NCBI GenBank assembly: GCA_043750195.1
Contig: JAYVCB010000163.1
Coordinates: forward strand, 1-53,928
Length of the DNA stretch: 53,928 bases
Origin: Planctomyces sp.
Lineage (GTDB): Bacteria > Planctomycetota > Planctomycetia > Planctomycetales > Planctomycetaceae
Reading direction: 5' to 3'
Program-made: the position numbers and the translations under genes
Part shown: piece by piece, positions 7,501 through 48,913 of the stretch
Numbering within the stretch: position 1 is the stretch's first letter
Layout: each line of letters opens with the position of its first letter
Notes under the pieces: generated by a model
Told to the model about the DNA's origin: nothing
What the model saw: the letters and a program-made list of their open reading frames with translations, nothing else
Database searches by the model: none

Positions 7501-7517
7501 TTCGCGACGCGAACAAC

Positions 7518-7568: not shown

Positions 7569-7569
7569 T

Positions 7570-8480: not shown

Positions 8481-8540
8481 GTAGACCGGACGCCTACGTC
8501 CGGTCGAATCGGCAGGTCCGGACGTAGGCGTCCGGACTAC
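8481..8540. repeat. GTAG-headed REPIN-like doublet
   Basis: gtagaccggacgcctacgtccggtc (8481-8505) pairs with gtccggacgtaggcgtccggactac (8516-8540); 2 mismatches. Each arm is itself a small palindrome (ccggacg..cgtccgg). Confidence 0.9.
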
Positions 8541-12948: not shown

Positions 12949-14517
12949 ATGAATGACCAATCCAGTTCTGCTTCCGAGTCAAACCGGAGCGGCCAACTGC
13001 CACCGTGGGAGGTCGCTGAACTCCCGGAGCCGCTCCCGTTCTCGATCCGCAACGCATTCAAGATCATCGGCCCCGGTGCCATCCTGTTGGCGGCGTCGAT
13101 TGGTGGCGGCGAGTGGCTGATCGGACCGGCGATCACGATCCAGCACGGCCCCGGAGTTCTGTGGATCGCGACCGTCGCCATCGTGCTGCAATTGATCTTC
13201 AACCTCGAAGGCATTCGCTACACGCTTTACACGGGTGAGCCGGCGATCTCCGGCATCATGCGACTGAAACCCGGCTGCCGCTTTTGGGGGGGCGCGTATG
13301 TGTTGCTCACGGCGATGCAGCTCGGAGTTCCCGCGCTCGCGCCGGCCACGGCGGTGACGGTGTTCGGCATGATGATGGACCGTGTGCCGGTGGAGGCTCC
13401 CGAAGAGAAGGAACTCCGAGACGCCGAGAAGTCCGGTGATGTCACGGCGTCCTCGGCGCTGCAACAGCAACGCGAGCGGGCGGCCTCGGATCGCGGCAAG
13501 CTTCTTAAGATCACCTACGGAATCATCATCGTTACGCTGCTGATGCTGATGTTCGGCGGGACCATCGAGCGGATGCTGGAATGGTCGTCGTGGTTCATGA
13601 TCGCTTACATCTTCATCTTCTTGATCGCCGTTAATGTCTGGTTTGTGCCGGCTGAGCAGTGGTTGATCACGCTGCGCGGTTTCGTCAGTTTTGGCGAGTG
13701 GCCGCAAGGGGTCGAGCCGTTGCTGATGGCGACGTTCTTCGCGACGGCTGGGTCCGGAGGCATCGGCAACCTGACGATCTCGAATTGGATCCGCGACAAA
13801 GGCTTCGGCATGGGAGCGGTGGTCGGCGCGATTCCCAGCGCGGTCGGAGCGAAAGAGATCCGGCTGTCGCACGTCGGCAAGGTGTTCGCCATCACGTTGG
13901 ACAACATGCGGCGCTGGCGAATCTGGTGGCGGTATGTCGTGATCGATCAGGTTTGGGTGTGGGCACTCGGTTGTTTCTGCGGCATGTTCCTGAACGTGAA
14001 CCTCGCCCAAGCCATCATCAAGCCCGGCACGGACCTCTCGAAGATCGGAGCCGGCGCTTTTCAGGCTCAATACATGGCCGAGCACTTCTGGTCGGCATTG
14101 TGGATCCTGGGATTGCTCAACGGCTTTTGGATTCTGTTCTCGACGCAGTTGGGCAACACCGACGTCTTGATCCGCACGCTGACCGACACGCTGTGGACCG
14201 CCAGCTCGCGAGTCCGCTCCTGGCGCGATGGCTCGATTGCGAAGGTTTATTACTCGCTGCTGTTCGTGTTCACGGCCTGGGGATTGGTCGCGGTGCATCT
14301 GGGGAGCGCGATGACGCTCTTCAAGTACCTCGGCACGATGGCGGGCGTGGTCATGGCGATTGCCGGCGTGCAGCTTTATCTGGTCAACACGCGGCTGTTG
14401 CCTCGCGAACTGCAACCGAGTTGGTGGCGGAAAGCGGCGCTGCTGATCTGCTCGGCGGCCTATGGCACGATGTCGTTGATCGCGATTACGGATGTCGTGC
14501 GAAAGTGGTTCGCGTAG
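12949..14517 (+). CDS. Nramp-related polytopic membrane transporter (probable divalent metal transporter)
   Basis: 522 aa with about 11-12 hydrophobic segments. N-terminal FKIIGPGAILLAASIGGGEWLIGP resembles Nramp/MntH-related families. Substrate is not established. Confidence 0.7.
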   Translation: MNDQSSSASESNRSGQLPPWEVAELPEPLPFSIRNAFKIIGPGAILLAASIGGGEWLIGPAITIQHGPGVLWIATVAIVLQLIFNLEGIRYTLYTGEPAISGIMRLKPGCRFWGGAYVLLTAMQLGVPALAPATAVTVFGMMMDRVPVEAPEEKELRDAEKSGDVTASSALQQQRERAASDRGKLLKITYGIIIVTLLMLMFGGTIERMLEWSSWFMIAYIFIFLIAVNVWFVPAEQWLITLRGFVSFGEWPQGVEPLLMATFFATAGSGGIGNLTISNWIRDKGFGMGAVVGAIPSAVGAKEIRLSHVGKVFAITLDNMRRWRIWWRYVVIDQVWVWALGCFCGMFLNVNLAQAIIKPGTDLSKIGAGAFQAQYMAEHFWSALWILGLLNGFWILFSTQLGNTDVLIRTLTDTLWTASSRVRSWRDGSIAKVYYSLLFVFTAWGLVAVHLGSAMTLFKYLGTMAGVVMAIAGVQLYLVNTRLLPRELQPSWWRKAALLICSAAYGTMSLIAITDVVRKWFA

Positions 14518-14553
14518 TGCCGAATGGCGGTGAAGCCGCAGATATGTCGCCGT

Positions 14554-14632
14554 CATCGCTCCGCGTGACGAGCCGAACGCTTCACCGACGCGATTTGGCC
14601 ATTCGGCTCATCACGCGGAGCGATGATGGCTA
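14554..14632. repeat. REPIN-like doublet, family CGCTCCGCGTGAyGAGCCGAA (intergenic sibling of the intragenic copy at 32761)
   Basis: catcgctccgcgtgacgagccgaa (14554-14577) pairs with ttcggctcatcacgcggagcgatg (14602-14625). The right arm continues into atggCTAC. The TAG stop of the minus-strand hydrolase gene (14630-14632) is the TAG of that GTAG head. Confidence 0.9.
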
Positions 14633-15604
14633 CGTTGACGCCGGCAGCACCCAATCGCGCAACTGCGTCTGCAACCAATCGCCGTTGCCGGTCGCGAGGT
14701 AGCCGAGATGCCCGCCTCCCTCGGCGATGTGCAGCCGCACGTTGGCCGGTGGAGAGAGACGCTCGAAGGACGTGATCGGGATCAGCGGGTCGTTGCGTGA
14801 GGTCAGGATCAGCGTCGGGACTCGGATCGCGGGAATGAATTGCTCGGAGCTGCACCGCTGGTAGTAATCGTCCGCATTGCGATAGCCGGAACGCGGAGCG
14901 GTGTATTGGTCATCGAACTCGACGAGTCGGCGTGGTGTCCGAGCAAACGAGGGGGGCAAAAAGTCGATTCGTTGCCGCTGAAGCTCACGCAAGCGTTGCA
15001 ACAACTGCCGCACGAAGTAGGCGTCGTAATGCCGCTGCGGCCAGCGCGACAGGCCGTAGGTGCAACTTGCCAAATCAATCGGCGGATTGATCGCTGCTGC
15101 TCGAACGAGTTCCAAGGGGACTCGTTCAGGAGCCTCACCCAGCAATTTCAAAACGATGTTGCCGCCTAAAGAAAATCCGAACAACGAGACCGGTGAATTG
15201 GGACACCACTCGATCACCGCCCGCAACACCGCGAGCACATCGTCCGAGCAGCCTGCGTTATACGGCTTCAGTGCCAATCCGAAACCGGCTCCGCAGCCGC
15301 GCAGGTCCAATCGAAACGTGCGGACGCCGTGCTCGTTGAGCATTGCCGACATGCGGACCAAGTAGGAACTGCGATGACATCCGGCGAGTCCGTGCAGCAT
15401 CACGACGACCGGGCCTGCATTCGGCCAGTCCCGTGGGGAGTCGTCGTGAACGACCAGCGTGTCGCCGTCAGTCAAAGGGATATGGCGAATCACGGCACGT
15501 TCGTCGGGCAAGCGGCCGGGGAAGAATGCTCCGGCGAGCGTTTGGCGATGACCTCCCGCCAAGGCCCAGTGAGATCGGAATGGTGGAATTGTGATCGTCG
15601 GCAT
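14630..15604 (-). CDS. Alpha/beta-fold hydrolase (YheT/ABHD-like)
   Basis: ORF 14630..16366 trimmed to ATG 15604 (MPTITIPPF...). Contains MLHGLAG and the nucleophile elbow GFSLGGN; 324 aa. Confidence 0.85.
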   Translation of the reverse strand: MPTITIPPFRSHWALAGGHRQTLAGAFFPGRLPDERAVIRHIPLTDGDTLVVHDDSPRDWPNAGPVVVMLHGLAGCHRSSYLVRMSAMLNEHGVRTFRLDLRGCGAGFGLALKPYNAGCSDDVLAVLRAVIEWCPNSPVSLFGFSLGGNIVLKLLGEAPERVPLELVRAAAINPPIDLASCTYGLSRWPQRHYDAYFVRQLLQRLRELQRQRIDFLPPSFARTPRRLVEFDDQYTAPRSGYRNADDYYQRCSSEQFIPAIRVPTLILTSRNDPLIPITSFERLSPPANVRLHIAEGGGHLGYLATGNGDWLQTQLRDWVLPAST

Positions 15605-15686
15605 AGGGGTGGTATTCGAGCGAGTCGGTGTTATTCGTGCCACGCGGCTGACCAATGTTTCAACTTGAGAAAAGCGCGCTGATATG

Positions 15687-15746
15687 CAGCACGACGCGTG
15701 AGCGAGTGGTTGCTCGATAACAACCACTCGCTCACGCGTCGTGCTG
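15687..15746. repeat. Perfect 26-bp hairpin in a divergent intergenic region
   Basis: cagcacgacgcgtgagcgagtggttg (15687-15712) pairs with caaccactcgctcacgcgtcgtgctg (15721-15746); 8-nt loop. Confidence 0.9.
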
Positions 15747-15820
15747 GTGTCGCACGCTCGTCTTCCGATAGAGTCCCGCGCCGCTGATGGAGCGGCGAAT
15801 TGATCTGTTGAGGAGCAACG

Positions 15821-17449
15821 ATGCGTGCGACGAAGGTGTTGTTCTGGCTGGCTCAGTTGGCGGGCGTGGCGGCGACGATCTGGTTGTTGTGGGGATCGGA
15901 TCTGCCACTGGGTGTTCCCAACGAATGGACTTGGGATCGCATTCAGTTCGATGACGCGACCTTCAAAGAGACCGCGTTGGGTTGGGGCATCGCGGCTCTG
16001 GCGACCGTCGGTTATTTGCTGTTTTGCTTGTTCGCCGACCGCCGTGTGCTGGAAGCAAATCGCTGGGAGATGACCGGTTGGCTGGCGGCGCTGGTGATCG
16101 GCGGCGCGACTTGGCACGGCATCGTTCAGGAGTGTCCGCCGGAGCCGCATCGGCTGAACAAGGTCGGCTGGGTGCTGTGGTATCACGGCTTTCAAGGCTA
16201 CTACGAAGAAGCGAAAGGCCGCGCGAGCCAAGAGCCGGACTACCTCGCGAAGTATGCCGAGCGGATGCGCGAAGGAGACGTCTTGCACTTCGGCACGCAT
16301 CCGCCCGGATTCATTCTGTTGCACAAGTCGATCATCAGGTTCTTGACCCGCTTCCCGAAGTTGCAACCGATGCTGTTGGAGTATCAGCCGGACTCGGTGC
16401 GCGAAGGGATTCAGATCATCGCCGTGAACTCGGCGAGAACGACGATGCCACTGACGGACGTGGACCGAGCAGCGTTGTGGCTGTCTGGATTGCTGGCCGC
16501 GCTGGCGGCGATGAGCACGGTCGTGCCGCTATTTTTTCTCGCGCGTCAGGCCTGCGGACGCGAGGTGGCGTGGCGAGCGGTCTGCCTGTGGCCGTTGATC
16601 CCTGCCTTAGCAGTGTTTCATCCAGTCTCGGATTTATGGCTGCCGTTCTTCGCGACATCGTTCCTCGCAGTCTGGGGGCGAGCATGGTCTCAACGGTCCA
16701 TCGCGGCCGGATTGCTCGCCGGTCTGGTGATGTTTCTGGGGATGACGTTGAGCCTCGCGATGTTGCCGATCGCATTTCTCGCCGCGCTGTGGACGCTGGC
16801 CGATTGCGCGTTCGGTGAAGCCATCGAGCCGTTTGGCACTCGCGTGAAAGAATTGGCGCAGTGCGTCGCGGCCGCGTTGACGACGTTCGCCATTTTTGTC
16901 GGGCTGACGTGGTGGCTGTACTCGCTCGACCTGCCGAGCGTGTGGATGCAGAACTTTCACAATCACGCCGGCTTCTACGCGAAGTATCCGCGCACGTTTT
17001 CGTCCTGGCTGCTAGTCAATCCCATCGAGTTGGCACTAGCGGCTGGCACGCCGATCTTTCTCATTGCCGCTTTGAGTTGGCTGACCAGCACGAAAGGTTG
17101 TCTGCGCTCCGGCCGCTCTTTGGCGAGCTTTCGGTTGTGGTGTTTCGTGACGCTGGCCGTGTTGTGGCTGAGCGGCAAGAACTCCGGCGAGGCGGCTCGG
17201 CTGTGGATCTTCTTGATGCCGTGGCTGCTGTGGGTCTCCAGCCGCGAGCCGGAAATCACCGCCAAGATCGTCAACGGCCCCGGCCAAACGCTCCCCGAAT
17301 ACACTGGCACACCCGCGCGCGGCTGGTTGCTGCTGATGGTTCTGCAAGCGATCGTCTGCACGGCGACGGTCAGCCGAGTGGATGGGTTTCACTTCAAGAC
17401 GACCGTGCCGGTGCCAGCCGTGACCGATCAACCGTCGGGCGAAAAGTAA
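15821..17449 (+). CDS. Polytopic membrane protein, possibly a GT-C-type (ArnT/PMT-like) glycosyltransferase
   Basis: 542 aa with at least 10 TM segments and a loop containing HFGTHPPGFILL. The functional assignment is weak. Confidence 0.5.
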   Translation: MRATKVLFWLAQLAGVAATIWLLWGSDLPLGVPNEWTWDRIQFDDATFKETALGWGIAALATVGYLLFCLFADRRVLEANRWEMTGWLAALVIGGATWHGIVQECPPEPHRLNKVGWVLWYHGFQGYYEEAKGRASQEPDYLAKYAERMREGDVLHFGTHPPGFILLHKSIIRFLTRFPKLQPMLLEYQPDSVREGIQIIAVNSARTTMPLTDVDRAALWLSGLLAALAAMSTVVPLFFLARQACGREVAWRAVCLWPLIPALAVFHPVSDLWLPFFATSFLAVWGRAWSQRSIAAGLLAGLVMFLGMTLSLAMLPIAFLAALWTLADCAFGEAIEPFGTRVKELAQCVAAALTTFAIFVGLTWWLYSLDLPSVWMQNFHNHAGFYAKYPRTFSSWLLVNPIELALAAGTPIFLIAALSWLTSTKGCLRSGRSLASFRLWCFVTLAVLWLSGKNSGEAARLWIFLMPWLLWVSSREPEITAKIVNGPGQTLPEYTGTPARGWLLLMVLQAIVCTATVSRVDGFHFKTTVPVPAVTDQPSGEK

Positions 17450-24950: not shown

Positions 24951-27842
24951 ATGAGTCGTGTTCTTTGGTGTTTTATTGGCTGCTGGTGCGTCATCACTGC
25001 TGTTGCGACAAGTTTCGCGGATGACGCCAAGGCGATGGCTCCCGACTTCAATACACAGGTCGCGCCGATCTTCAAGAAGTACTGCAACGGCTGCCACAAC
25101 GCCGACGAGAAGGAAGGCGGACTGATCCTGGAGTCGTTTGACTCGGCGTTGAAAGGTGGCAAGCGCGGTGCGGTCATCGTCCCTGGAAAGAGTGACCTCA
25201 GCCGGTTGGTGCTCAGCGTTGAGAAGAAGGTCAAGCCGGTGATGCCGCCGGAAGGGAACGCAGGGCCGAAGCCGGAGGAGATCGCAATCCTCAGGGCGTG
25301 GGTCGATGCTGGAGCGAAGGGGCCGACCGGGCAGGCTCCCGATCCGACGGTGCTCGTCACTCCGAAGATCGCAACGAAGGGACAGGTGCGGCAGCCGATT
25401 CAGGCGCTCGCGTGGTCGCGCGATGTGGCGACCGTTGCGATCGCTCGGCAGGGGCGAGCCGAGTTGGTCCGCATCCCCCCGACTCCCGGCGAGATCGCTC
25501 GCGGTGTGCCGGACTCTAAGACTCTAGTCCGAGAACTTGTTGGGCTGCGCGGTGTCATTAACGATATCGGAGTTGCTCACGATTTGAGTTTCGTCTTCGC
25601 GGCGGCCGGTGAGCCGGGAGTGTTTGGCGAAGTGCGATTCTTCAAGGTGGTGGATGGTTCGCCGATTCGGACGATTCAAGGGCATCGCGATGCCGTCTAT
25701 GCGGCCGAGTTGAGTCCCGACGGCAAGCTGCTCGCGACGGGGAGCTACGACCAGAAGGTCAAACTTTGGAATGTTGAGACCGGCGCGGAGTTGCGGACTC
25801 TGCACGGCCACAATGATGCGGTGTACGACGTCGCGTTTCATCCGAACGGTCAAATCCTGGCGAGCGCGTCGGGAGATCGAACGGTGAAGCTGTGGAACGT
25901 CGCGACCGGCGAGCGGCTCGACACGCTCAATCAACCGGAGAAGGAACAGTACGCGGTCGCGTTCAGCCTCGACGGCAAGCGGATCGTGGCCGGCGGCGTC
26001 GATAAACGGATTCGCGTGTGGGACATCACGGCCGGAGGTAAAGAGGGGACGAACCCGATTGCGTTCTCGCGGTACGCTCACGAAGGGGGAATCCTCAAGC
26101 TCATCTTTTCGCCGGATGGAAAGATGCTGGTCTCGTCGGCCGAGGATCGACGCATCAAGTTGTGGGAGACGCAGTCGTTCACGCAGCTCAAAGTGTTGGA
26201 GACTCAGCCCGATTGGCCGCAGGCGCTGGCGATCTCGCCGGACAGCTCGACGTTGATGGTCGGCCGATTGGATGGATCGTTGCAGTCGTACCCGATCGCA
26301 AACGCCGGCGCGGGACTCGTCGCCTCGACGCCGCTGACGGGCGATCCGATTCCGCCGCTCGCCAGCGAGTCGGCTCCGATGCAAACGGTCGATGAAGTCG
26401 AGCCGAACGATGCGTTCGCTCAAGCTCAAGCGATTTCGCTGCCAGCGACGGTCAATGGCAAGTTCGCGGCGGCAGGCGATCACGACCTCTTCCGCTTCGA
26501 GGCCAAGGCCGGACATGTCTGGATGCTGGAAACGAACGCCGCCCGCAAAGGCTCGCCCGCTGACACGAAAATCGAAGTGCTCACTCCCGATGGCCGACCG
26601 GTGCAGCGGCTCGTGCTGCAAGCCGTCCGCGAGACGTACAACGAGTTCCGACCGATCGACTCCAACGGCCCGGACATCCGCTTGAAGAACTGGGAAGAGA
26701 TGGACCTCAACCAGTTCCTCTACATTGGCGGCGAAGTGCTCAAAACGTTTCGAATGCCGCAAGGCCCGGACTCTGGAATGCAGATGTATGCCAACGGTGG
26801 CAAGCGGATCGACTACTTCGACACGAGTGCCACGATCCATGCGCTTGACGAAGTTTGCTACATCGTCGAGCCGTATCCTGTCGGCACGAAGCTGATCGAC
26901 AACGGGTTGCCGGTCTATCCGCTGAATTACGAGAACGACGATGACGGCGAACGCAAATTCGGCAACGACAGCCGCCTGAGTTTTACAGTGCCGGCCGACG
27001 GCACGTATCTCGTGAAAGTCACCGACGTGCGTGGCTTCGGCGGCGACAAGCACGACTACTCACTGACCATCCGCCCTCCGAAGCCCGACTTTACTCCGTC
27101 GCTCGCCGGAGGCAAAGACGCGACCGTCGCCGCCAGCAGCGGCACACGAGTCACTTTCCAGATCGACCGCACAGACGGTTTCGACGGCGACGTCCGCTTC
27201 GACGTCACGGGCCTGCCCGAAGGCTTTTCGATTTCAACTCCGACTGTCGTTCAAGCGGGCCACACGCAAACGCGCGCGGTCCTGAGCACGTCGCTCGATG
27301 CCAAAGAGAAAGCTCCGCCGAAGGAAGCCTGGGCGAACGTGAAGATCTCCGCGACGGCGATCATTCACGGACAGTCGGTTACGAAAGAGGCCGGCACGCT
27401 GGGTGAGATCAAGCTCGCAGACAAAGCGAAGTTCGCCGTGTTCCTCACGCCCGATCGGCAACCGCTCAAGGCCGCCGAGAACAACGCCGCTCCGCGCGCC
27501 GATTCACCGCCGAAGCCAGACGACATCCCGGAACTCATCATCGCGCCCGGCACGACGATCACCGCGATGCTACGCATCGAGCGAGCTGACAAGTTCAACA
27601 ACGAGCTACGCTTCGATATCGACAATCTGTCGCATGGCGTGATTGTGGACAACATCGGACTCAGTGGCGTGATGATCCGCCAAGGTGAAACGGAACGTCA
27701 AATCTTCCTCACGGCGTCAAGCTGGGTGCCGGAATCAACTCGGTTGATCTACGGCATTTCGCAGCAAGAGGGGAATCAAGCGTCGCGACCGGTGCGGCTC
27801 ATTGTGCGCAAGCCGCAACAGACCGCAGTGACCTCTCCGTAG
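24951..27842 (+). CDS. Secreted PSCyt1 (planctomycete cytochrome c) - WD40 repeat - PPC-domain protein
   Basis: ORF trimmed to ATG 24951. Has a signal peptide and a CNGCH haem site within FKKYCNGCHNADEKEGGL. At least 6 WD40 repeats (GHRDAVYAAELSPDGKLLATGSYDQKVKLWN and others). A pre-peptidase C-terminal-like VEPNDAFAQAQAISLPATVNGKFAAAGDHDLFRF is also present. Confidence 0.9.
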   Translation: MSRVLWCFIGCWCVITAVATSFADDAKAMAPDFNTQVAPIFKKYCNGCHNADEKEGGLILESFDSALKGGKRGAVIVPGKSDLSRLVLSVEKKVKPVMPPEGNAGPKPEEIAILRAWVDAGAKGPTGQAPDPTVLVTPKIATKGQVRQPIQALAWSRDVATVAIARQGRAELVRIPPTPGEIARGVPDSKTLVRELVGLRGVINDIGVAHDLSFVFAAAGEPGVFGEVRFFKVVDGSPIRTIQGHRDAVYAAELSPDGKLLATGSYDQKVKLWNVETGAELRTLHGHNDAVYDVAFHPNGQILASASGDRTVKLWNVATGERLDTLNQPEKEQYAVAFSLDGKRIVAGGVDKRIRVWDITAGGKEGTNPIAFSRYAHEGGILKLIFSPDGKMLVSSAEDRRIKLWETQSFTQLKVLETQPDWPQALAISPDSSTLMVGRLDGSLQSYPIANAGAGLVASTPLTGDPIPPLASESAPMQTVDEVEPNDAFAQAQAISLPATVNGKFAAAGDHDLFRFEAKAGHVWMLETNAARKGSPADTKIEVLTPDGRPVQRLVLQAVRETYNEFRPIDSNGPDIRLKNWEEMDLNQFLYIGGEVLKTFRMPQGPDSGMQMYANGGKRIDYFDTSATIHALDEVCYIVEPYPVGTKLIDNGLPVYPLNYENDDDGERKFGNDSRLSFTVPADGTYLVKVTDVRGFGGDKHDYSLTIRPPKPDFTPSLAGGKDATVAASSGTRVTFQIDRTDGFDGDVRFDVTGLPEGFSISTPTVVQAGHTQTRAVLSTSLDAKEKAPPKEAWANVKISATAIIHGQSVTKEAGTLGEIKLADKAKFAVFLTPDRQPLKAAENNAAPRADSPPKPDDIPELIIAPGTTITAMLRIERADKFNNELRFDIDNLSHGVIVDNIGLSGVMIRQGETERQIFLTASSWVPESTRLIYGISQQEGNQASRPVRLIVRKPQQTAVTSP

Positions 27843-27891
27843 CCGCACTCGCCAGAGTGCGGGCCGCCCGCGTTCTGGCGAACGCGGCTAC
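27839..27891. repeat. GTAG-headed imperfect palindrome overlapping the stop codon of the PSCyt1-WD40 gene
   Basis: gtagccgcactcgccagagtgcggg versus cccgcgttctggcgaacgcggctac (4 mismatches in 25). The TAG of the head (27840-27842) is the gene's stop codon. Confidence 0.8.
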
Positions 27892-27935
27892 GGTTTGAAA
27901 TGTCCTTCCGTTGACCTAACGAAAGATCCGTCGAA

Positions 27936-28674: not shown

Positions 28675-30204
28675 TTGATCGGGAGATTGATCGTGAACTG
28701 TTTCCGCTGGTTGATCTCGCTGGTTCTGGTTTTGGAATTTGTCTCTTCCGTCTCCGCCGCGGACGCGATCCGTCCCAACATCGTCTTCATTCTGGCGGAC
28801 GATCTCGGCTACGGAGAGCTTGGCTGCTTCGGGCAGACAAAGATCAAGACACCGAACCTCGATAAGCTGGCTTCCGAGGGGATGCGGTTGACGCAGCATT
28901 ATTCGGGCAATGCCGTGTGTGCTCCGTCGCGGTGTGTGTTGATGACCGGCAAGCATCCGGGGCACGCTTTCATTCGGAACAATCGCAGCACGCCGCCAGA
29001 GGGGCAGTATCCGATTCCGGCCGACACCGTCACGCTGCCGAAGTTGCTTGGCAAACAGGGCTACGTTTGCGGTGGGTTCGGTAAGTGGGGGTTGGGCGGG
29101 CCGGGGTCCACCGGCGAACCGCTCAAGCAAGGGATGAATCGCTTCTTCGGATTCAATTGCCAAGGAGTCGCTCACAACCACTATCCAACACATTTGTGGG
29201 ACGACGACAAGCAAGTGCGGCTCAACAACCCGGACTTCGACGCGCATCAAAACAAGCTCGCCGCCGGAGCCAATCCCAATGACCCCGCCAGCTATGCGGG
29301 GTTCTTCGGCAAAGAGTTCGCTCAAGACGTCATCATGGAGCAAGCCCTGCGGTTTGTGCGTGACAACAAGAGCCGCCCGTTCTTCTTGTATGTGCCCAGC
29401 ACGATTCCGCATCTGGCCATTCAAGTGCCGGAAGATTCGCTGGCCGAGTATGCCGGCAAGTTCGACGATCCGCCGTATGTCGGTGGCAAAGGTTACTTGC
29501 CGCATCGGCAACCACGAGCGGCTTACGCCGCGATGATCTCGCGGTTGGATCGCGACGTCGGACGGATCGTGTCGCTCGTGCGCGAACTTGGCCTCGAAGA
29601 GAACACGCTGTTCGTATTCAGTTCCGACAACGGCCCGGCCTATGACGGCATCGGCGGGACCGACGCGGACTTCTTCAATTCCGCCGGTCCATTGCGCGGC
29701 AAGAAAGGTTCGCTGTACGAGGGAGGCTTCCGAGTCCCGACGATTGCACGTTGGAAAGGGAAGATCCCCGCCGGCACGGCTCGTGATCGAGTCAGCGGCT
29801 TTGAAGACTGGTTGCCGACGCTGTTGGAAGTTGCCGGTGCGAAGGACGCGATTCCGAAGGACATCGACGGTCTCAGTCTGCTGCCAACGCTGCGCGGCGA
29901 ATCGCAATCCGAGCGTCCGTTCTTGTACCGCGAGTTCCCGGACTACAGTGGCCAGCAGTCCGTGCGCGTCGGCGATTGGAAGGCGGTTCGGCAGTATCTC
30001 AAAGCGAAGGGGAAAGCCGCTGATGCGGATTCCGCGAAAGTCATCGTGAAGACGGAGCTCTATAACCTGAAAGATGACCTCGCCGAATCAAAGGATGTCG
30101 CCGCCGAGCATCCAGACGTTGTGGCCAAGCTCGAAAAGTTAATGCACGAGCAGCACGTCCCGTCCGCGGAGTTTCCGTTTGCGACGTTGGATCGAGCGAA
30201 GTAA
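28675..30204 (+). CDS. Formylglycine-dependent sulfatase (arylsulfatase family)
   Basis: Signal peptide, PNIVFILADDLGYGELG and the CAPSRCVLMTGK (C-x-P-x-R) motif. The start is uncertain: TTG 28675, TTG 28687 or GTG 28693. Confidence 0.93.
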   Translation: MIGRLIVNCFRWLISLVLVLEFVSSVSAADAIRPNIVFILADDLGYGELGCFGQTKIKTPNLDKLASEGMRLTQHYSGNAVCAPSRCVLMTGKHPGHAFIRNNRSTPPEGQYPIPADTVTLPKLLGKQGYVCGGFGKWGLGGPGSTGEPLKQGMNRFFGFNCQGVAHNHYPTHLWDDDKQVRLNNPDFDAHQNKLAAGANPNDPASYAGFFGKEFAQDVIMEQALRFVRDNKSRPFFLYVPSTIPHLAIQVPEDSLAEYAGKFDDPPYVGGKGYLPHRQPRAAYAAMISRLDRDVGRIVSLVRELGLEENTLFVFSSDNGPAYDGIGGTDADFFNSAGPLRGKKGSLYEGGFRVPTIARWKGKIPAGTARDRVSGFEDWLPTLLEVAGAKDAIPKDIDGLSLLPTLRGESQSERPFLYREFPDYSGQQSVRVGDWKAVRQYLKAKGKAADADSAKVIVKTELYNLKDDLAESKDVAAEHPDVVAKLEKLMHEQHVPSAEFPFATLDRAK

Positions 30205-30225: not shown

Positions 30226-30293
30226 TTTCATGGTTCTGCCCCCATCGTTCTGCCAAGAAGTTTTGGCAGAACGATGGAGGCAGAACGATGAAA
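30226..30293. repeat. 31-bp-arm palindrome (ggcagaacgatgg type) between convergent genes
   Basis: tttcatggttctgcccccatcgttctgccaa (30226-30256) pairs with ttggcagaacgatggaggcagaacgatgaaa (30263-30293); 2 mismatches. Confidence 0.9.
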
Positions 30294-30317: not shown

Positions 30318-31733
30318 TTATTGGATGAGGTTCTTTCGTAGCTCCGCGAGTAGCTGATCGACTTCTGATGGGTCATAACCGAGCGGGGTCGCGTAGTTTG
30401 GTCGGTATTTCAGTCGCGTCCGCAAGGGAATCAGTGCTCGCGAATCGCTCGACGGCGGGAACGGCGTTTTCCCGGTGAGTCGTTGTAGCGATTGGCTGGC
30501 TGCGGCGATGGCGAGAAACCGCTGCATCTGACCGTCCCAGTTGGGTTGCCACTCGGCATCGGACTTCGCGTCGATCACTCGATGCAGCAGTTGCGTTGCT
30601 TGAGCGGCGTCGTAGTGCGAGGACTCCAGCGAGCGCAACCAACTGGTCAGGTCATCGCTGGCTCGTTGAGCGGCCGTGACCACTTCGTTGGCCGGGGCAG
30701 AACGCAGCCGTGACTGCCCCATCACTGCGAGCAATGACTCTAAAGATTTTTCGGACGCCGTTCCGTGAGCCAGGAATTTCGCGGATGGAATTGACCACGA
30801 TCCCCAGCGTGGCGTTCCCAGCGGTTGGCGAAGCGTCGGACGTCCGAGCGTCGGTTCCGTGAGATCGTGGTGGCAGGCATTGCAATCGAACTCGGCGAAG
30901 TCCGGCAGAACGTGAGACGCATTGTCGTGAACGGCCTGCTTGGCTCGAGCGGCGGCGATATCGGACATCGCTTTGGCCGAGGCGGCCTGGCCGATAGCCC
31001 AGAGTCGAACTTCTTGTCCCGGATCTTGCTGAGTTTCCAGCGTGGCATCCCAGTGCCTGGGCAGCATCGAGTGGAACGACGACATCTCAAACGCTAATCG
31101 CGGATGCCCCGCCGCGATGAGATCGTGATCGACCGTCGCGGCCGGAGAGCCGATATGGCAGGCGACGCACGTTTCCGCACGAGTGGTCAGAGAACGCAGG
31201 TCGCGAAAACCCAACTCCGACTTCTGTGTTGTTGAGAGAAACTTCCAAGTGCGAATGGTGTGCTTCGCGATCCAATCACCCGCCGCTCCGTGGCAGCTTT
31301 CACAGCCGACGCCGTATTCGAGCACGAACCGATCGCCATGATTTGGTTTCGAATCTCTGGAGGAAGAGTGACACGCCAGGCAGCGAGCATGTTGGTGAGC
31401 GCCAATGCTCACTCCCGCGTCGTTCTTCAGGTCGAGCTTCTTGGCCATCGCGACCGAGACGTCATTGAAGAGGATCTCGTAAGCACGTCGGTGCATCGTA
31501 TCGCGTTGCTGCCAGGCTCCCGCTTCGCCGCCAACCAGCGAGCGTGCGCCGTGACAGCTCACGGCATTGCAACCGGCGACTCCGATCAATTGATGACCTA
31601 GTCCCTCGGAGTTGCTCGCTGCCGGAGCGGGCGGAACTGTCGCTTGCAACGAATCTGCCGCATGAGCGGTCAGCGCTTCCATCGGTGCCGACACAGCGCT
31701 GGCCACCGCCACTAATCGGAGTATCCAATTCAT
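30318..31733 (-). CDS. Secreted multihaem c-type cytochrome
   Basis: ORF trimmed to ATG 31733 (MNWILRLVAVASAVSAP signal). Four CxxCH sites (CLACH, CESCH, CVACH, CNACH) plus one CNAVSCH (C-x4-CH). Confidence 0.85.
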   Translation of the reverse strand: MNWILRLVAVASAVSAPMEALTAHAADSLQATVPPAPAASNSEGLGHQLIGVAGCNAVSCHGARSLVGGEAGAWQQRDTMHRRAYEILFNDVSVAMAKKLDLKNDAGVSIGAHQHARCLACHSSSRDSKPNHGDRFVLEYGVGCESCHGAAGDWIAKHTIRTWKFLSTTQKSELGFRDLRSLTTRAETCVACHIGSPAATVDHDLIAAGHPRLAFEMSSFHSMLPRHWDATLETQQDPGQEVRLWAIGQAASAKAMSDIAAARAKQAVHDNASHVLPDFAEFDCNACHHDLTEPTLGRPTLRQPLGTPRWGSWSIPSAKFLAHGTASEKSLESLLAVMGQSRLRSAPANEVVTAAQRASDDLTSWLRSLESSHYDAAQATQLLHRVIDAKSDAEWQPNWDGQMQRFLAIAAASQSLQRLTGKTPFPPSSDSRALIPLRTRLKYRPNYATPLGYDPSEVDQLLAELRKNLIQ

Positions 31734-31941
31734 CGCGCGCTTCCTTATGGCAGGCATCAAGTCCACTGGGGAGTCTCACCTATAGATCGAGTGGTGTGTC
31801 GTGGATTTCGAGAATTCAACGGCGATTCTGGCGAGCTTCCTGTTGATGGCTCGTGCGATGCAAGAAGTCGTCACTCCGCGACGAATGAAATGACTCTTCG
31901 TAACCCGCACGTTGAGAATTCCCGCGACAACTCGCAGGCGA

Positions 31942-32080
31942 GCGGGGCGGCGTCAGCCCCCCGGTTGTCATTAGCCATCGTGACCACCGGGGGGCAGACG
32001 CCCAATGGCATTCACGTTGTGAGCGGCACGGCGCTAGCCGCCGGTATTTCGCGAGTGCCATTGGGCTGACGCCGCCCCGC
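31942..32080. repeat. 139-nt composite nested palindrome
   Basis: Outer perfect 18-bp stem gcggggcggcgtcagccc (31942-31959) / gggctgacgccgccccgc (32063-32080). Inner stems are ccccccggt/accgggggg (31957-31965 / 31986-31994) and cccaatggca/tgccattggg (32001-32010 / 32057-32066). Confidence 0.85.
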
Positions 32081-32102
32081 GCGCCAGAATGTCTGTTGAG
32101 AA

Positions 32103-33848
32103 CTACGGTCGCAACGGCGCAATGACTCGCGAGGCATGTTGCTTGTTGAGCTGCACGGTGTTCGTCGCCGTGACAGCGTTCGCGGGGAACTCCAAGCCGA
32201 GCGGTTCGCCGGTATTCGGGTTCGGTTCAAAGAACGGAGCGCCGGTGCTGGCGACGGTGACTCGGATGCGATGTCCCTTCGCGAAGATTTGGCTGATCCA
32301 GCCGACTTCAAAGGCAACCTTCTCGACCTTGCCGGGCGTGAAGAACACTTCCTGCTCGAAGCCGTCGCGATAACGGCCGCGGCGGATGTAATCGACCAGC
32401 AGGATCGAGCGACCGTCGGGATAAACGTCACAGACGCGGACGATGAAGTCGGTGTCCTTTGCCGATGACGTGACGAATAACTCCGTCTTCACGAGTCCCG
32501 TCCATTCCACCGGTTCGGTGAGCGGTTCGGTCGTGAAGGTGCGGACCTCGGCCTGCTCTTCAAACTTGCGAGCGTCTGCCGCGCCGGGAAAGCCCTTGTT
32601 GTTCGGGATGTTGGCCGGCTTCAGCGGATCGGCCAAAAATGTTGCGTCGGCGTCGGCTTCGGTCGGCGATGAATTCGTCAGCCTGCCGCCGTCGCGCAGG
32701 AAGTACGACGTCGGTGTCGCAGAGATCGGCCAGTCATTCGTCTCTCGCCAGATGTTGCCAACGTAGCCGTCACGCTCCGCGTGACGAGCCGAACGCTCGT
32801 TCGACGCCGATCCTGAATCCGATGCCGGTGAAGCGTTCGACTCGTCTCGCGGAGCGAGACGGCTACGTTCCTCACCCATGACGTAGTACCGCACCGTCGG
32901 GTCACGATCGACACCGTTGTCTCGCCCCTTCAGCCAGAAGTCGAACCAACGAACGAGATGGCTCTCAGCATCGAACTTTGCGTTCTCTGGAAAGGTCATC
33001 TCGCTGACCTTGTTGGTGTTCTTGCCGAGATATCCGCCGTGCAGCCACGGGCCGATAAGCAGTTGTTGCTTGCCGCGCGAATTCGGGCCGGCACGATGCT
33101 GCCGCCCGCGATAGCTCTCGATCGAGCCGATATTCATGAAGTCGAACCAACTGCCGATCGTGAAGCAGGGGACGTCCATCTTGTCGAAGTGCCGCGAGCA
33201 ATCTTCCTGCTTCCAATAGTCATCGAACGTCGGATGCTTGAACCACTCGACCCGCAACGCGAGGTTGTGAGCCGGCTCGCGGCAGACGGCGTCCATCCCT
33301 TTGAACCGCTCCGGCCGAGTCGTCCCACCGATGCGATAGCCTTCTTGGTAGAGGCTCAATCCTGTGTCGATCATGTATTGCGCGACCAGATGCGGCGGGC
33401 GAGTCACGGCTAAAAAGTTCTGAGCGAACCCAGCCTGCGAACTGCCGAAAGTACCAATCTTTCCCGTGGACCATTTCTGTATGGCGAGCCATTCGACTGT
33501 GTCGTATCCGTCCTGCAATTCGCCCCAGCCGAGCGCTCGATAGCCGACCCATGTCCCTTCCGACTTTCCCGCTCCGCGATAGTTCTCGGCACAGACGACA
33601 TAGCCGGCCTTCGCCAGCCGAGCGTTTCCCTGCCGAGTCCCAACGCCTTTCAAGTCGGCATAGCGCTGCTCGTACAACACCGGCCACGGGCCGTCACCCG
33701 GCGGGAAGTAAAGATACGCCGAGAGCTTCGTCCCATCGCGCATCGGAATCATCATCTGCTCTTCGCGCACAACGCCGAGGTCGATCGGTTCCTGCGCGAA
33801 GGCCGACGACAGGGAGACGAGGCAGAATCCAATCAAAAGCACGCGCAT
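32103..33848 (-). CDS. CocE/NonD-family (S15 X-Pro dipeptidyl-peptidase-like) hydrolase, secreted, with a repeat-derived in-frame insertion
   Basis: 581 aa with a signal peptide. Contains PVLYEQRYAD and GTFGSSQAGFAQ (nucleophile region), and a C-terminal jelly-roll part. Codons for ERSRLAPRDESNASPASDSGSASNERSARHAERDGYV are encoded by the palindrome at 32761-32868. Confidence 0.88.
   Translation of the reverse strand: MRVLLIGFCLVSLSSAFAQEPIDLGVVREEQMMIPMRDGTKLSAYLYFPPGDGPWPVLYEQRYADLKGVGTRQGNARLAKAGYVVCAENYRGAGKSEGTWVGYRALGWGELQDGYDTVEWLAIQKWSTGKIGTFGSSQAGFAQNFLAVTRPPHLVAQYMIDTGLSLYQEGYRIGGTTRPERFKGMDAVCREPAHNLALRVEWFKHPTFDDYWKQEDCSRHFDKMDVPCFTIGSWFDFMNIGSIESYRGRQHRAGPNSRGKQQLLIGPWLHGGYLGKNTNKVSEMTFPENAKFDAESHLVRWFDFWLKGRDNGVDRDPTVRYYVMGEERSRLAPRDESNASPASDSGSASNERSARHAERDGYVGNIWRETNDWPISATPTSYFLRDGGRLTNSSPTEADADATFLADPLKPANIPNNKGFPGAADARKFEEQAEVRTFTTEPLTEPVEWTGLVKTELFVTSSAKDTDFIVRVCDVYPDGRSILLVDYIRRGRYRDGFEQEVFFTPGKVEKVAFEVGWISQIFAKGHRIRVTVASTGAPFFEPNPNTGEPLGLEFPANAVTATNTVQLNKQHASRVIAPLRP
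32761..32868. repeat. 108-nt GTAG-headed REPIN-like element located inside a coding sequence
   Basis: acgtagccgtcacgctccgcgtgacgagccgaacgct (32761-32797) pairs with agcgttcgactcgtctcgcggagcgagacggctacgt (32832-32868). There are 3 mismatches in 37 and a 34-nt spacer. It belongs to the same family as 14554-14632. Confidence 0.9.
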
Positions 33849-33948: not shown

Positions 33949-34046
33949 GTAACCCGAAGCGTCAGCGAGGGCGGGCGCTCCGAACGACGATGATCCTGTG
34001 ATGGATTGTCGGTGAAGCGCCCGCCCTCGCTGAAGCTTCGGGTTAC
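33949..34046. repeat. 31-bp-arm palindrome (GTAA-headed)
   Basis: gtaacccgaagcgtcagcgagggcgggcgct (33949-33979) pairs with agcgcccgccctcgctgaagcttcgggttac (34016-34046); 1 mismatch and a 36-nt spacer. It is preceded by a small hairpin, gccgacgc tgcca gcgtcggc (33925-33945). Confidence 0.9.
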
Positions 34047-34050
34047 GATG

Positions 34051-36006
34051 TCACGGCAAATCCCACACGGTTCCGTACGCTCCTTCGCGTTCGAAGTGAT
34101 CGAGCAGTCGCCGATAAAAATCGTGATTCGCGAGCGTGCTGCTGTCGCCGATGACGATCAGTTTGCGGCGTGCTCGCGTGAGAGCGACGTTCGTGCGGCG
34201 CGTGTCGGCGAGGAAGCCGACTTCGCCGGCCGTGTTCGAGCGCACCAGCGAGATCACGACCGCTTCTTTCTCGCGGCCTTGGAAGCCATCCACGGTGTCG
34301 ATCTCGATCGCCGCGTTGTCGAGCAGCGTTCGTAGCAGCCGGGCTTGTGCGGCATACGGAGTGATGATCGCGATCTCGGACGGAGTGACGCCCGCTGCGA
34401 GTAGCTCCTGAACTTGCCGAGCGACGATGTCTGCTTCTCCCGGATTATTGCGGCTCGAACCATCGGCCTCGGCCTGTTCAACACAGTCCGAGCCGGCCGT
34501 ATCGATGAATTGCATCGCCGTTTGAGTGAAAGGGCAGGGGGCGACGTGAGGCAGATCGGCCAAGACATGCTCTCTCACGCAGTCGGCGGCGATCAGCGAG
34601 GAATCGTAGAACTCGTCGGAAGAGAACCGCATGATTTGCTCGTGCATCCGGTACTGCGTCGTGAGCTGCCGCGAGATGACATCACCGCAACTCGCGACAA
34701 GCCGCTCCATCAGGCTGATGTCAAAGCCGAGTTGCTTCGCTGCGTTCGACAGGATCGTCGGCGGCAACTGCCAATGATCGCCCGCCAGCACCAGCCGTTT
34801 GGCTCGCAGCAACGGAATCCAACAAGCCGGCTCGGTGGTCTGAGCCGCCTCGTCGATCACCGCCAAGTCGAACTGCAACTTGCCGAGCAACTCGTCATCC
34901 AGCCCCGTCAGCGTCGCACACACGACCGTTGCTGATTCGAGCAAGTGCGCGACCAGCCGTTCTTCCAACTTCCGAGCATCGGCCAGCAATCGATTGGCCT
35001 CGTCCCGTTGATCACGTCGCGCACCTTTCTCCGGAGCGGTTCGCGTGAATTTGCTCGCCTGACGCCGCAGTGCCCACGCTTGTTTCTTCCACTCACGAGC
35101 CAACTTCAAATCGGGATGCGCCGCCACTTGCAGGTCGAGCGTGTGCTCGCGCAGCTCCGGCAACACGCGAGCCGGATGCCCCACGCGAATCGCTCGCTCA
35201 CCCGCCGCCAGCAAGCGTTCCAACAGATTATCGACCGCCAGATTGCTGGGAGCACACGCGAGCACACGCTCGCCGCGCTGCACGGCCTGCCGAATGAGTT
35301 CGACAACCGCCGTCGTCTTCCCCGTCCCCGGCGGACCATGAATGACCGCGACCTCTTTCGCCGCCAACGCATGAGCCACGGCCGCGCATTGCGATTCATC
35401 AAGCTGCTCGGCATCCGCTGTGTAGCCGCATTTCGCCAGAACGCGGGCATCTGGCCCAAGCCCCGCGTTCTGGCGAAGCGCGGCGACACAGTCATCGAAC
35501 TCCGGCGGTTCCTCACCGAGCAACTTTCGCTTCAGCGCCGCAAGCCGGCCGTGATCCGCAGCCGCCACTTGCTTGAGTGCCGCTCGCTGTCGCTCGCGCG
35601 AGATTTCATCCGACGACCAGTCCAATCGAAACGTCTGCCGATCATTGCTCGGTTCCGGAGACTGAGTCAGTGCGACCGTGATCGTCTCGCGATCACGGCC
35701 GGTGACGACGCCGCGACACGCGACACTTTCCGTGGCGTGCTCTTCGGAGAGAACGACCGGACTGCCGGAGTTCAGCTTCGTCCACGGCAATTCAACGCGC
35801 CGATCGCGCTTGCCCAGCGTGAGCAGCACTCGCCCACCGAACCCGGCCGCTTCCTCGCGAATCGCCAGGCTGAGCAGGCATCGGCCGGATCGCTCGGCGG
35901 ACTCGCCGCCCGTCTGCCGAGACAGCTTCACGACGTCGTGGGCTTCCGCTTCGGCTTCCAGTTCGAGGCACCGCAGCAGGTTTTGAAAATGGTCGGTGGA
36001 GTTCAT
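34051..36006 (-). CDS. Superfamily-1 helicase of the Upf1/IGHMBP2-like (AAA_11/AAA_12) type
   Basis: 651 aa with an N-terminal barrel-like region. Contains Walker A GPPGTGKTT, motif II VIDEAAQ, TVDGFQGREKEAVVISLVRSN and NVALTRARRKLIVIGD. Confidence 0.9.
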   Translation of the reverse strand: MNSTDHFQNLLRCLELEAEAEAHDVVKLSRQTGGESAERSGRCLLSLAIREEAAGFGGRVLLTLGKRDRRVELPWTKLNSGSPVVLSEEHATESVACRGVVTGRDRETITVALTQSPEPSNDRQTFRLDWSSDEISRERQRAALKQVAAADHGRLAALKRKLLGEEPPEFDDCVAALRQNAGLGPDARVLAKCGYTADAEQLDESQCAAVAHALAAKEVAVIHGPPGTGKTTAVVELIRQAVQRGERVLACAPSNLAVDNLLERLLAAGERAIRVGHPARVLPELREHTLDLQVAAHPDLKLAREWKKQAWALRRQASKFTRTAPEKGARRDQRDEANRLLADARKLEERLVAHLLESATVVCATLTGLDDELLGKLQFDLAVIDEAAQTTEPACWIPLLRAKRLVLAGDHWQLPPTILSNAAKQLGFDISLMERLVASCGDVISRQLTTQYRMHEQIMRFSSDEFYDSSLIAADCVREHVLADLPHVAPCPFTQTAMQFIDTAGSDCVEQAEADGSSRNNPGEADIVARQVQELLAAGVTPSEIAIITPYAAQARLLRTLLDNAAIEIDTVDGFQGREKEAVVISLVRSNTAGEVGFLADTRRTNVALTRARRKLIVIGDSSTLANHDFYRRLLDHFEREGAYGTVWDLP

Positions 36007-37968: not shown

Positions 37969-37976
37969 GATTCCCC

Positions 37977-38039
37977 GTAGCTCGGCTCTCCAGGGCCGAG
38001 CAAACCTGCGCCGATCTCGGCGCTGGAGAGCCGAGCTAC
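37977..38039. repeat. GTAG-headed REPIN-like palindrome
   Basis: gtagctcggctctccag (37977-37993) pairs with ctggagagccgagctac (38023-38039). An inner pair gccgag/ctcggc is also present. Confidence 0.9.
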
Positions 38040-38251
38040 AGGCTTTTCGGATCGCTTCTGTTTTCCGATGGTGACCCGGGGCCGAGTCAAACCGGCTGTG
38101 CTCCACTCGCACAGCAGCGCGTTCCGGAACGCCAACGAGGCTGACGCTCCCGGTATTTACTTTGAGCGGAATGGCGCTAGCCACCGGTGTCGTGGGATCG
38201 ATTTCCCATGTCAAAACCGGCGGCGAGCGCCATGCCGCTCGCCACCGAGAT

Positions 38252-38683: not shown

Positions 38684-38720
38684 CTTCGTTCAACGTCAAA
38701 CCTCGCCGGGACGCAAGAAA

Positions 38721-38774
38721 CGTAGACGAGTCACTCCGTGATTCGAATTCGAGTCACTCCGTGACTCGCCTACG
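38721..38774. repeat. GTAG-headed palindrome, same family as 7518-7568
   Basis: cgtagacgagtcactccgtgattcgaattcgagtcactccgtgactcgcctacg. The 18-mer gtagacgagtcactccgt is identical to 7518-7535. Confidence 0.9.
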
Positions 38775-38790
38775 TTGTGGCTACACCGCA

Positions 38791-48731: not shown

Positions 48732-48864
48732 GGCACATCCTCCGAAAAGCTGAGATTCAGCCGAGTATTCCGCTGTCAGACGTGAGCGGCTTCTCTCGAC
48801 TGACGAAACGTCGACGAGGAGTCTAGGCAGGATCAGCGACGATGAAAACTAATGACGCCCGTTG

Positions 48865-48907
48865 CCGAGTCGCTCCGCGACTCGGATCGGCGTCGCGGAG
48901 CGACGCC
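48865..48907. repeat. Two tandem small hairpins related to the MITE core, followed by a CTAC head
   Basis: ccgagtcgc tcc gcgactcgg (48865-48885) and ggcgtcgc gga gcgacgcc (48889-48907), then gctacgtta, where tta is the stop of the next minus-strand gene. Confidence 0.8.
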
Positions 48908-48913
48908 GCTACG

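Follow-up and report, generated by a model that had tools for sequence, protein, structure and literature searches.

Background

Repetitive extragenic palindromes (REPs) of the GTAG type are located mostly between genes, with a minority residing inside open reading frames (ORFs) of known proteins, where REP dimers encode 20–30 aa (Di Nocera, De Gregorio & Rocco 2013, BMC Genomics 14:522; PMC3733652). The same survey recorded GTAG REPs in Planctomycetes (R. baltica), found intragenic GTAG REPs to be most numerous in Opitutus terrae, a bacterium of the Planctomycetes-Verrucomicrobia-Chlamydiae (PVC) group, and described REPs of both the GTAG and the CGTC type inside genes of several species. It also noted that Xanthomonas recB contains different REPs at roughly one site, and that REPs had inserted into pre-existing palindromes. 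Here, we analysed a stretch of 53,928 nt from Planctomyces sp. (GenBank assembly GCA_043750195.1, contig JAYVCB010000163.1; called the window below), in which a GTAG-headed inverted repeat is situated in frame within a gene for a secreted CocE/NonD (S15) family serine hydrolase.

The element in the window shares with the published intragenic GTAG REPs and REP dimers (PMC3733652) the GTAG head, the short stem-loop, the arrangement in inverted pairs with a spacer of 20–100 nt and, among related genomes, the occurrence in multiple copies. It differs in that its family could not be mapped to one of the 24 named GTAG families and originates from metagenome-assembled genomes (MAGs) of uncultured freshwater and groundwater planctomycetes. 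Moreover, neither the window nor the fetched flanks yielded an associated REP-associated tyrosine transposase (RAYT), the share of intragenic copies is high, and the intragenic copies possess longer spacers.

A second related class are the Rickettsia palindromic elements (RPEs). According to the accounts of Ogata et al. 2000 given in PMC3733652 and PMC10969869, these palindromes reside in frame in many unrelated Rickettsia genes and encode a peptide that is compatible with the fold. As portrayed there, they resemble the window element in being translated as an extra peptide with which host fold and function are compatible. They are presumably unrelated in sequence, and they belong to a phylum other than the planctomycetes. 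In the same accounts, RPE-4 and RPE-6 are of the CGTC type and RPE-1 is ~150 bp long, whereas the window element is GTAG-headed. Furthermore, Rickettsia genomes are reduced and intracellular, while the planctomycete hosts are free-living with large genomes.

Miniature transposable elements with inverted repeats (MITEs; ERIC, Nezha and others, reviewed in PMC10969869) are short non-autonomous elements with inverted ends that may fuse in frame with host ORFs. The window element, in contrast, lacks a target-site duplication and terminal repeats derived from an insertion sequence, its ends being GTAG REP units. Its assignment to the MITEs was rejected, since instead of a duplication of the target, 20 ancestral bases are gone.

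Hence, palindromic repeats that are read through as a harmless surface loop constitute an already known class, represented by the Rickettsia RPEs and by GTAG and CGTC REPs in several phyla. A single case is ordinary; the interest of the present one lies in the frequency of such elements in the clade and in a distribution with identical junctions in lineages that are not monophyletic. We consider it probable (about 0.85) that the element is a mobile GTAG REP dimer that lies in frame in a working hydrolase gene and is predicted to be translated as a disordered surface loop. Direct support comes from its membership in a repeat family, its absence from most orthologues, the constraint on the gene, the predicted disorder of the segment and many other in-frame copies.

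The palindrome in the hydrolase gene

The hydrolase gene extends from position 32103 to 33848 on the minus strand and encodes 581 aa, with the insert at residues 326–363. A repeat finder run on the window delimited an inverted repeat of 110 nt at 32760–32869, which is the longest of the short-range inverted repeats in the window. Its arms of 38 nt each (32760–32797 and 32832–32869) are 92% complementary with 3 mismatches and are separated by a spacer of 34 nt. An earlier note on this DNA had described a 108-nt repeat with 37-nt arms; the inverted repeat with its 3 mismatches and 34-nt spacer is real, while it extends one base further at each end. As that note had also proposed, the element is in frame: the entire inverted repeat is contained in the ORF, and the translation around it, quoted correctly before, reads YYVMG-EERSRLAPRDESNASPASDSGSASNERSARHAERDGYV-GNIWRETNDWP.

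On the coding (minus) strand, the 5′ arm at 32832–32869 (REP unit 1) begins with the head AACGTAGCC, followed by a mini-hairpin at plus-strand positions 32843–32861 (CGTCTCGC-TCC-GCGAGACG) and the tail AGTCGAACGCT, and encodes ..RSRLAPRDESNA. The spacer (32798–32831, minus strand) encodes a low-complexity stretch of S, A, D, G and N that drifts among orthologues. The 3′ arm at 32760–32797 (REP unit 2, minus strand) has the inverted orientation and encodes ..SARHAERDGYV; its mini-hairpin at plus-strand positions 32768–32786 (CGTCACGC-TCC-GCGTGACG) is a compensated A-T/T-A variant of that of unit 1. The head AACGTAGCC at one end is matched by GGCTACGTT at the other, with GTAG outermost at both. 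Comparison of the junctions assigned four further bases on the minus strand, GAGG at 32870–32873 in coding orientation, to the gap that separates the element from the Gly325 codon.

Of the three mismatches between the arms, two form one compensated pair: where one arm has GTCTCGC/GCGAGAC, the other has GTCACGC/GCGTGAC. Each REP unit retains its own hairpin at the expense of the long one. The RNA fold of the whole element has a free energy of −82 kcal/mol (z = −9.5). With GTAG at both outer ends, a short imperfect palindrome in each unit and an inverted pair able to form one hairpin, the insert has the features of a GTAG-type REP and is best described as an inverted dimer of two GTAG-headed REP units of 109–110 nt. 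Such a dimer is of the type reportedly termed REP doublet forming hairpin (REPIN) by Bertels & Rainey 2011.

The host protein

Pfam assigned residues 38–271 to Peptidase_S15 (PF02129) and residues 311–575 to PepX_C (PF08530), with no Pfam match within the insert segment. Residues S137, D236 and H270 align with the catalytic triad of CocE, Ser137 being the nucleophile, and occupy invariant columns in an alignment of 120 sequences. The protein therefore combines the alpha/beta-hydrolase domain with a Ser-Asp-His triad and the C-terminal jelly-roll domain that characterise the CocE/NonD family. Outside the loop, pairwise dN/dS was 0.06–0.09 in all comparisons involving carriers of the insert, at synonymous divergences (dS) of 0.4–1.2, and the 581-aa frame has been kept open across four diverged carriers. 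Because dN/dS is this low, the triad invariant and the fold confidently predicted, the gene appears to be functional and under strong purifying selection.

The structure was modelled by AlphaFold with the 120-sequence alignment; a run with 28 sequences was too poor (mean predicted local distance difference test score, pLDDT, of 57). The model used has a mean pLDDT of 88.5 and a predicted template modelling score of 0.87. Values below 50 were confined to residues 331–354 and 356–358 plus a stretch of three residues at 174–176, and the low-scoring insert sits between the strands 319–324 and 366–370. In a Foldseek search the model matched cocaine esterase (1l7q/1ju3) with TM scores of 0.76–0.78. 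The host protein shares with CocE (PDB 1ju3, 1l7q) the three-domain fold and the aligned triad, at only ~25% identity. The insertion site aligns to CocE residues ~342–345 (VMGI-DE-WRDETDWP), where a turn of 2–3 residues stands in place of the 8 aa in the orthologues and the 38 aa here. The insert is thus probably a low-complexity, disordered surface loop close to the junction of the hydrolase and jelly-roll domains, in line with the tolerated loop that the earlier note had proposed between them.

A search of the insert peptide by phmmer against 1.84 billion representative proteins returned nothing at E ≤ 0.001, which is uninformative for a query this short and of such low complexity. Inteins have an N-terminal Cys/Ser nucleophile, a C-terminal HN followed by Cys/Ser/Thr and a length of at least ~130 aa. 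An intein or homing element, considered in view of the patchy distribution at one site, was rejected for the insert, which consists of 38 low-complexity residues (EERSRLAP...RDGYV) followed by Gly, with neither splicing motifs nor a Pfam match.

The ancestral loop

From thousands of relatives returned by the homology search, the best 120 were used, in 116 of which the loop could be delimited; a scan of metagenomes contributed only ~7 further close orthologues. A loop of 8 aa with the consensus AVGEEGAP is located between YYVMG and GNxWR in 107 of these 116 close homologues and is retained down to 69% identity, so the long segment in the window gene represents the derived state. Among the closest orthologues, the loop is filled in eight and empty in the remainder. 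The alignment of orthologues that the earlier note had suggested thus located the difference exactly at this loop, with most orthologues lacking the segment.

At the DNA level, the empty site reads ATGGGA-GCCGTCGGCGAAGAGGGCGCTCCT-GGCAAC, with a 24-nt loop (also written ATGGGAGCCGTCGGCGAAGAGGGCGCTCCTGGCAAC), in the fetched loci L001, L009, L200 and L201, and the filled site of the window ATGGGT-GAGG-(AACGTAGCC...GGCTACGTT)-GGCAAC. Here, 114 nt (32760–32873, 38 codons) replace 24 nt (8 codons), so that the gene has become longer by 90 nt (30 codons). The flanks GGTGAGG and GGCAAC contain no direct repeat. The clean insertion of 36 codons supposed before is hence only partly borne out: deleting the 108 nt keeps the frame, yet it does not restore the ancestral sequence, in which 8 codons stood where 38 stand now.

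The order helicase–CocE–cytochrome c554 is conserved around filled and empty genes alike. As filled and empty genes share their neighbours, they are orthologues rather than paralogues, and paralogues undergoing concerted evolution were ruled out on the same ground. Loss of an ancestral insert was ruled out too, as the empty loops are homologous at the DNA level to the loop of the outgroup and vary with the host lineage; with the empty loops ancestral, insert loss cannot explain the scattered carriers described below.

One MAG, CAMDPK01 (loci L201, L138, L139 and L156), is labelled 'Candidatus Kuenenia stuttgartiensis' and carries the REP family with an empty CocE loop, so a genome may hold the family while this site stays unfilled. 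Its gene content matches the 'Planctomyces sp.' MAGs, and the label looks wrong.

The repeat family

A 21-nt core, CGCTCCGCGTGAYGAGCCGAA, matched the window four times at ≤3 mismatches compared to 0 matches in 100 shuffles. The four matches are both arms of the CocE insert and both arms of a sibling dimer at 14546–14633, so that the window holds two copies of the family. The sibling, which has a core-to-core spacing of 24 nt, is situated between the stop of ORF 14630–16366 (minus strand) and the start of ORF 12979–14556 (minus strand), in agreement with its earlier description as intergenic.

A unit of the family starts with the head (A)ACGTAGCC and ends with the tail GAGCCGAAYG. Between them, an 8-bp stem, in which CGC/GCG is joined by five variable pairs, encloses a TCC loop; the family core is CGCTCCGCG and the tail GAGCCGAA. 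Watson-Crick pairing at the five variable positions of the stem amounted to 93–99% in a set of 162 distinct arms, which were taken from the window and from related loci. They covary, with A-T in 65 and T-A in 18 arms at pair 1, C-G in 77 and G-C in 8 at pair 2, and G-C in 43, A-T in 32 and C-G in 10 at pair 4. The GTAG head was present in nearly all aligned copies.

A scan with the core pattern over one genome per GTDB species found at least 110 stretches, nearly all in planctomycete MAGs from lakes and groundwater. Together with the matches in the window, this recurrence of the arm sequence bears out the suspicion in the earlier note that the element is REPIN-like and belongs to a repeated family. 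Among the matches listed, many were located at contig ends, and inverted pairs accounted for 79 of the 135 elements in related loci. The modal core-to-core spacing was 24 nt (43 of the 79 pairs), as in the sibling 14546–14633, and 41 of the 46 pairs of the 24-nt type were not deep in ORFs. Presence/absence polymorphism at orthologous sites was seen for the CocE loop and for an insert in the neighbouring helicase gene. There was no Rfam family match anywhere in the window.

Other in-frame copies

Among the matches listed, 27 elements of the core-pattern loci were located at least 60 codons deep in open frames. Nine deep copies were tested, and each proved to reside in a real gene: Pfam domains flank the element on one side or on both, or are split by it. 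These genes encode a VIT+VWA protein, two Ser/Thr kinases (FGE-sulfatase and WD40 domains are present in one of them), a protein in which the element stands between PSCyt2 and PSD1, a DUF4915/TIGR03032 protein and a DUF7133 protein whose domains are split by the element, an FG-GAP protein, a DUF4175 protein and an ABC ATPase (ABC_tran). Nearly all of them use the same frame as the copy in CocE, RS[RH]HAPRDEPNA...SA[RH]HAERDGYV. The choice is restricted by the stop codons TAG, present in one frame of each REP unit, and TGA, usually present in another. Among the same matches, pairs deep in ORFs were enriched in those with spacers other than 24 nt (12 of 34 versus 5 of 46; Fisher p = 0.012).

Next to the hydrolase gene, the SF1 helicase gene 34051–36006 (minus strand) contains an in-frame palindrome at 35418–35491 that belongs to a different GTAG family and encodes CVAALRQNAGLGPDARVLAKCGYT. 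Its arms are CTGTGTAGCCGCATTTCGCCAGAACGCGGG and CCCGCGTTCTGGCGAAGCGCGGCGACACAG, and a sibling of that family is found at 27837–27893. Of the orthologues compared, L001 shares the helicase insert with the window, whereas L009 and L007 lack it. Taken together with at least nine other Pfam-confirmed genes carrying the window family in frame and with the published REPs and RPEs, it makes the earlier statement that intragenic in-frame copies are rare an overstatement.

In the TIGR03032 orthologues, the loop IHEMxW | ... | ELWFINTRF has an extra segment in 9 of 22 sequences. The segments differ in sequence, and one of them is a dimer of the same type as that in the window. With this second protein family, the repeated filling of one loop is shown to be general. 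In addition, the peptide SFNRTPQARAFPSIQAASHDQNAHACGLRLNE occurs in TIGR03032/DUF4915 proteins at two sites of P0125, one of them also in P0123 and P0130, which suggests a further repeat family translated in frame.

The uncultured freshwater and groundwater planctomycete clade thus appears to carry in-frame REP dimers in many real genes, with one preferred frame. It offers naturally occurring data on where a fold can accept loop insertions of 30–45 aa, and a setting in which the movement of REP dimers may be studied. For annotation, such segments should not be taken for frameshifts, pseudogenes or novel domains.

Distribution at the CocE loop

Across the orthologues, four element types are found at the same 24-nt loop. 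Type A, the 109–110-nt REP dimer, is present in the window, L003, L005 and L006. Type B, in L004 and L007, is a 131-nt dimer of a subfamily with the stem CTGTCGC/GCGACAG, whose arms are repeated at other, apparently intergenic, loci. Type C, in L008, is a single related unit. Type D, at positions 3470–3560 of L011, is an unrelated 50-nt palindrome, GGAGTTCCGACTTCAGGCGG-TTCCGCTGAG-CCGCCTAAAGGCGGAACTCC, in a loop of 20 aa; this CocE orthologue is 86% identical, and no other copy of the palindrome was found in 201 fetched loci.

Host trees were calculated from proteins and codons without the loop. The carriers of type A are scattered in them: the window groups with the empty L001, L009 and L010, L005 with the empty L014, L003 pairs with L007, a carrier of type B, and L006 takes the basal position. 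When trees were built on the 150 or 300 nt flanking the loop, they agreed with those of the remainder of the gene. At the level of single bases, L005 has TAT at 12 nt upstream and AAT at 6 nt downstream of the loop in common with its empty sister L014. Homologous transfer of a long patch was ruled out, because both the flank trees and the bases next to the loop follow the host tree.

L003, L005 and L006 carry the same insert as the window, at the same site, with the same length of 114 nt and the same asymmetry of the arms, L006 with an additional 12-nt duplication at its 3′ end. The window gene and these three genes are separated by a dS of 0.72–1.06. In comparison to the window the arms are 88–100% identical, and 82–100% between carriers, while the 42-nt middle of the insert is 60–76% identical to that of the window and 50–76% between carriers, near the neutral expectation. 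With the same insert in orthologues at dS 0.7–1.1 and a spacer of only 60–76% identity, the insertion is not recent, contrary to one of the alternatives in the earlier note.

The 109-nt '42-type' dimer also occurs in two unrelated genes, in L153 and L169, and the spacers in CocE are no closer to one another than to the copy in L153. Used as a clock, spacer similarity cannot separate a single from a multiple origin.

Proposed mechanism and alternative explanations

We propose that a non-autonomous palindrome landed in the coding sequence of the CocE/NonD gene, where a short turn connects two beta-strands (RYYVMG | GNIWRE) as the C-terminal jelly-roll begins. The insertion event itself or later trimming would have removed 20 of the 24 ancestral loop bases, at a net gain of 90 nt that kept the frame. 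As two of the three frames of a REP unit are free of stop codons, the element would then be read through as a 38-aa low-complexity disordered loop (EERSRLAPRDESNA...SARHAERDGYV), leaving fold, triad and purifying selection in place. By analogy with GTAG REPs generally, it was presumably mobilised in trans by a RAYT-type Y1 transposase. The arms may have been kept similar through gene conversion with other genomic copies or through selection on the hairpin, and not through selection on the peptide. One permissive loop per protein might collect insertions since those elsewhere are purged.

Several observations weigh against this proposal. The event was not a simple insertion, given the loss of 20 ancestral bases and the lack of a target-site duplication. 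Type A was monophyletic in 0 of 200 bootstraps, and a single vertical insertion does not explain this. The arms are far more conserved than synonymous sites, making some hairpin function possible. Finally, a Pfam search detected no RAYT (Y1_Tnp) among 14 ORFs of the window, 13 of which are ≤224 aa, nor in the fetched flanks; the 14 ORFs gave TadE, NUDIX, BFN, abhydrolase, PQQ_2 or nothing. There was also no RAYT candidate among the ORFs between REP clusters in the fetched loci, and a REP-flanked ORF in L130 that was considered turned out to be a thioredoxin/PDZ protein.

That lineages which are not sisters have the same junctions, yet native flanks, argues for lateral transfer of the insert alone or for targeted integration. 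The former, to which we give somewhat less than even odds, would be one insertion-plus-deletion event, after which the insert alone spread laterally between related planctomycete lineages. During transformation, for instance, a heterology of 114 nt could escape mismatch repair, with mismatches in the flanks being corrected to the recipient. The four type A carriers share position, length (except for the duplication in L006), the orientation of the asymmetric arms (T-A variant 5′, A-T variant 3′) and the loss of the same ancestral bases, and they are scattered in a well-supported host tree; type B repeats the pattern in two lineages. This account has to suppose the repair-corrected transfer, however, and has to accommodate flanks that follow the host phylogeny up to the junction, as in L005 and L014, and trees of the near flanks that are congruent with those of the distal gene.

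Only slightly less likely is that the loop is a true target, into which REP dimers of several subfamilies inserted independently at the same junction by a site- or structure-specific mechanism. This would account for four element types in one 24-nt loop, for flanks native to each host lineage, and for the 109-nt dimer as a defined subfamily found also in L153 and L169 with equally distant spacers. REPs in pre-existing palindromes and different REPs at about one site of Xanthomonas recB (Di Nocera et al., PMC3733652) are consistent with it, as are the TIGR03032 orthologues with many different inserts at a single loop. The identical loss of 20 bases in four independent events, on the other hand, is difficult to obtain unless a deterministic mechanism exists, none of which is known for REPs, and no target consensus was found in the flanks of 18 family copies. 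Repeated filling is explained equally well by selection that removes insertions elsewhere. Such purging suffices for different elements at one loop, but not for the same element with the same junction. In sum, the identical junctions, the 20-base loss and the orientation favour a single origin, whereas the native flanks and the dimer in unrelated genes favour targeted insertion. A specific variant supposes independent entries of type A at one codon position in at least four lineages, and of a second subfamily in at least two. Each entry would have replaced the same ancestral bases and left the native flanks intact, in a sequence- or structure-specific, homing-like and presumably RAYT-catalysed reaction instead of random insertion with subsequent selection. 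This variant is unlikely; if true, it would define a natural target of REPIN integration for the first time.

That the arms are so strongly conserved raises the question of domestication, by which the host now makes use of the peptide or of an mRNA or single-stranded DNA hairpin (acting, e.g., on mRNA stability or by pausing translation at the domain boundary). Synonymous sites differ at 46–61% between lineages whose arms match at 88–100%, the hairpin of each unit has been kept by compensatory changes, and the RNA hairpin is very stable, as given above. Nevertheless, domestication is improbable. Intergenic copies and those in unrelated genes have the same arms, conserved to the same degree, so that arm conservation is a property of the REP family and not of the CocE gene. 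Most orthologues lack the insert, and all compensated variants exist in the family pool, so that gene conversion explains them. In the orthologous in-frame REP dimers of the FG-GAP protein in two MAGs (L188, 677–779; L189, 3366–3468), the arms are conserved and the spacer has strongly diverged. The hairpin of one arm differs there by a compensated G-C to A-T change, and both states are frequent among the family members, as expected if copies undergo gene conversion or the hairpin is under selection.

The least credible alternative is a pseudogene, killed by the insertion and open in frame by chance, or the silently inactivated enzyme mentioned in the earlier note: a 38-aa foreign segment and a very stable hairpin inside the coding region might suggest it, but dN/dS is 0.06–0.09 in every carrier comparison at dS up to 1.2, four diverged carriers have kept the frame intact, the triad columns do not vary and the model is confident outside the insert.

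Further palindromes in the window

At least three further families of GTAG/CTAC-headed palindromes, e.g. AACGTAGACGAGTCACTCCGTGA... and CCCGTAGCTCGGCTCTCCAGGGCCGAG, were noticed in the window, mostly between genes (7515–7571, 38719–38776, 48860–48913, 11063–11108, 37974–38042 and 8481–8540). Hence, several REP families coexist within ~54 kb. In the gap between the CocE and helicase genes, positions 33949–34046 contain a member of another palindrome family with a GTAAC head (GTAACCCGAAGCGTCAGCGAGGGCGGGCGCT), an inverted repeat with 31-nt arms of 97% complementarity and a 36-nt spacer. Just 3′ of the CocE stop, a cluster of nested G+C-rich inverted repeats at 31937–32085 precedes the cytochrome c554-like gene 30318–31766.

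ORF 14630–16366 (minus strand, 578 aa) contains a perfect 26-nt inverted repeat with an 8-nt spacer at 15687–15746, ~207 codons from its start. The alpha/beta-hydrolase domain begins only at residue 319, and the repeat may be an in-frame palindrome or mark an over-extended 5′ end of the ORF. Between the convergent ORFs 28675–30204 (plus strand) and 30318–31766 (minus strand), an inverted repeat at 30226–30293 with 31-nt arms and a 6-nt spacer (TTTCATGGTTCTGCCCCCATCGTTCTGCCAA / TTGGCAGAACGATGGAGGCAGAACGATGAAA) is richer in A+T than the REPs and may serve as a bidirectional terminator.

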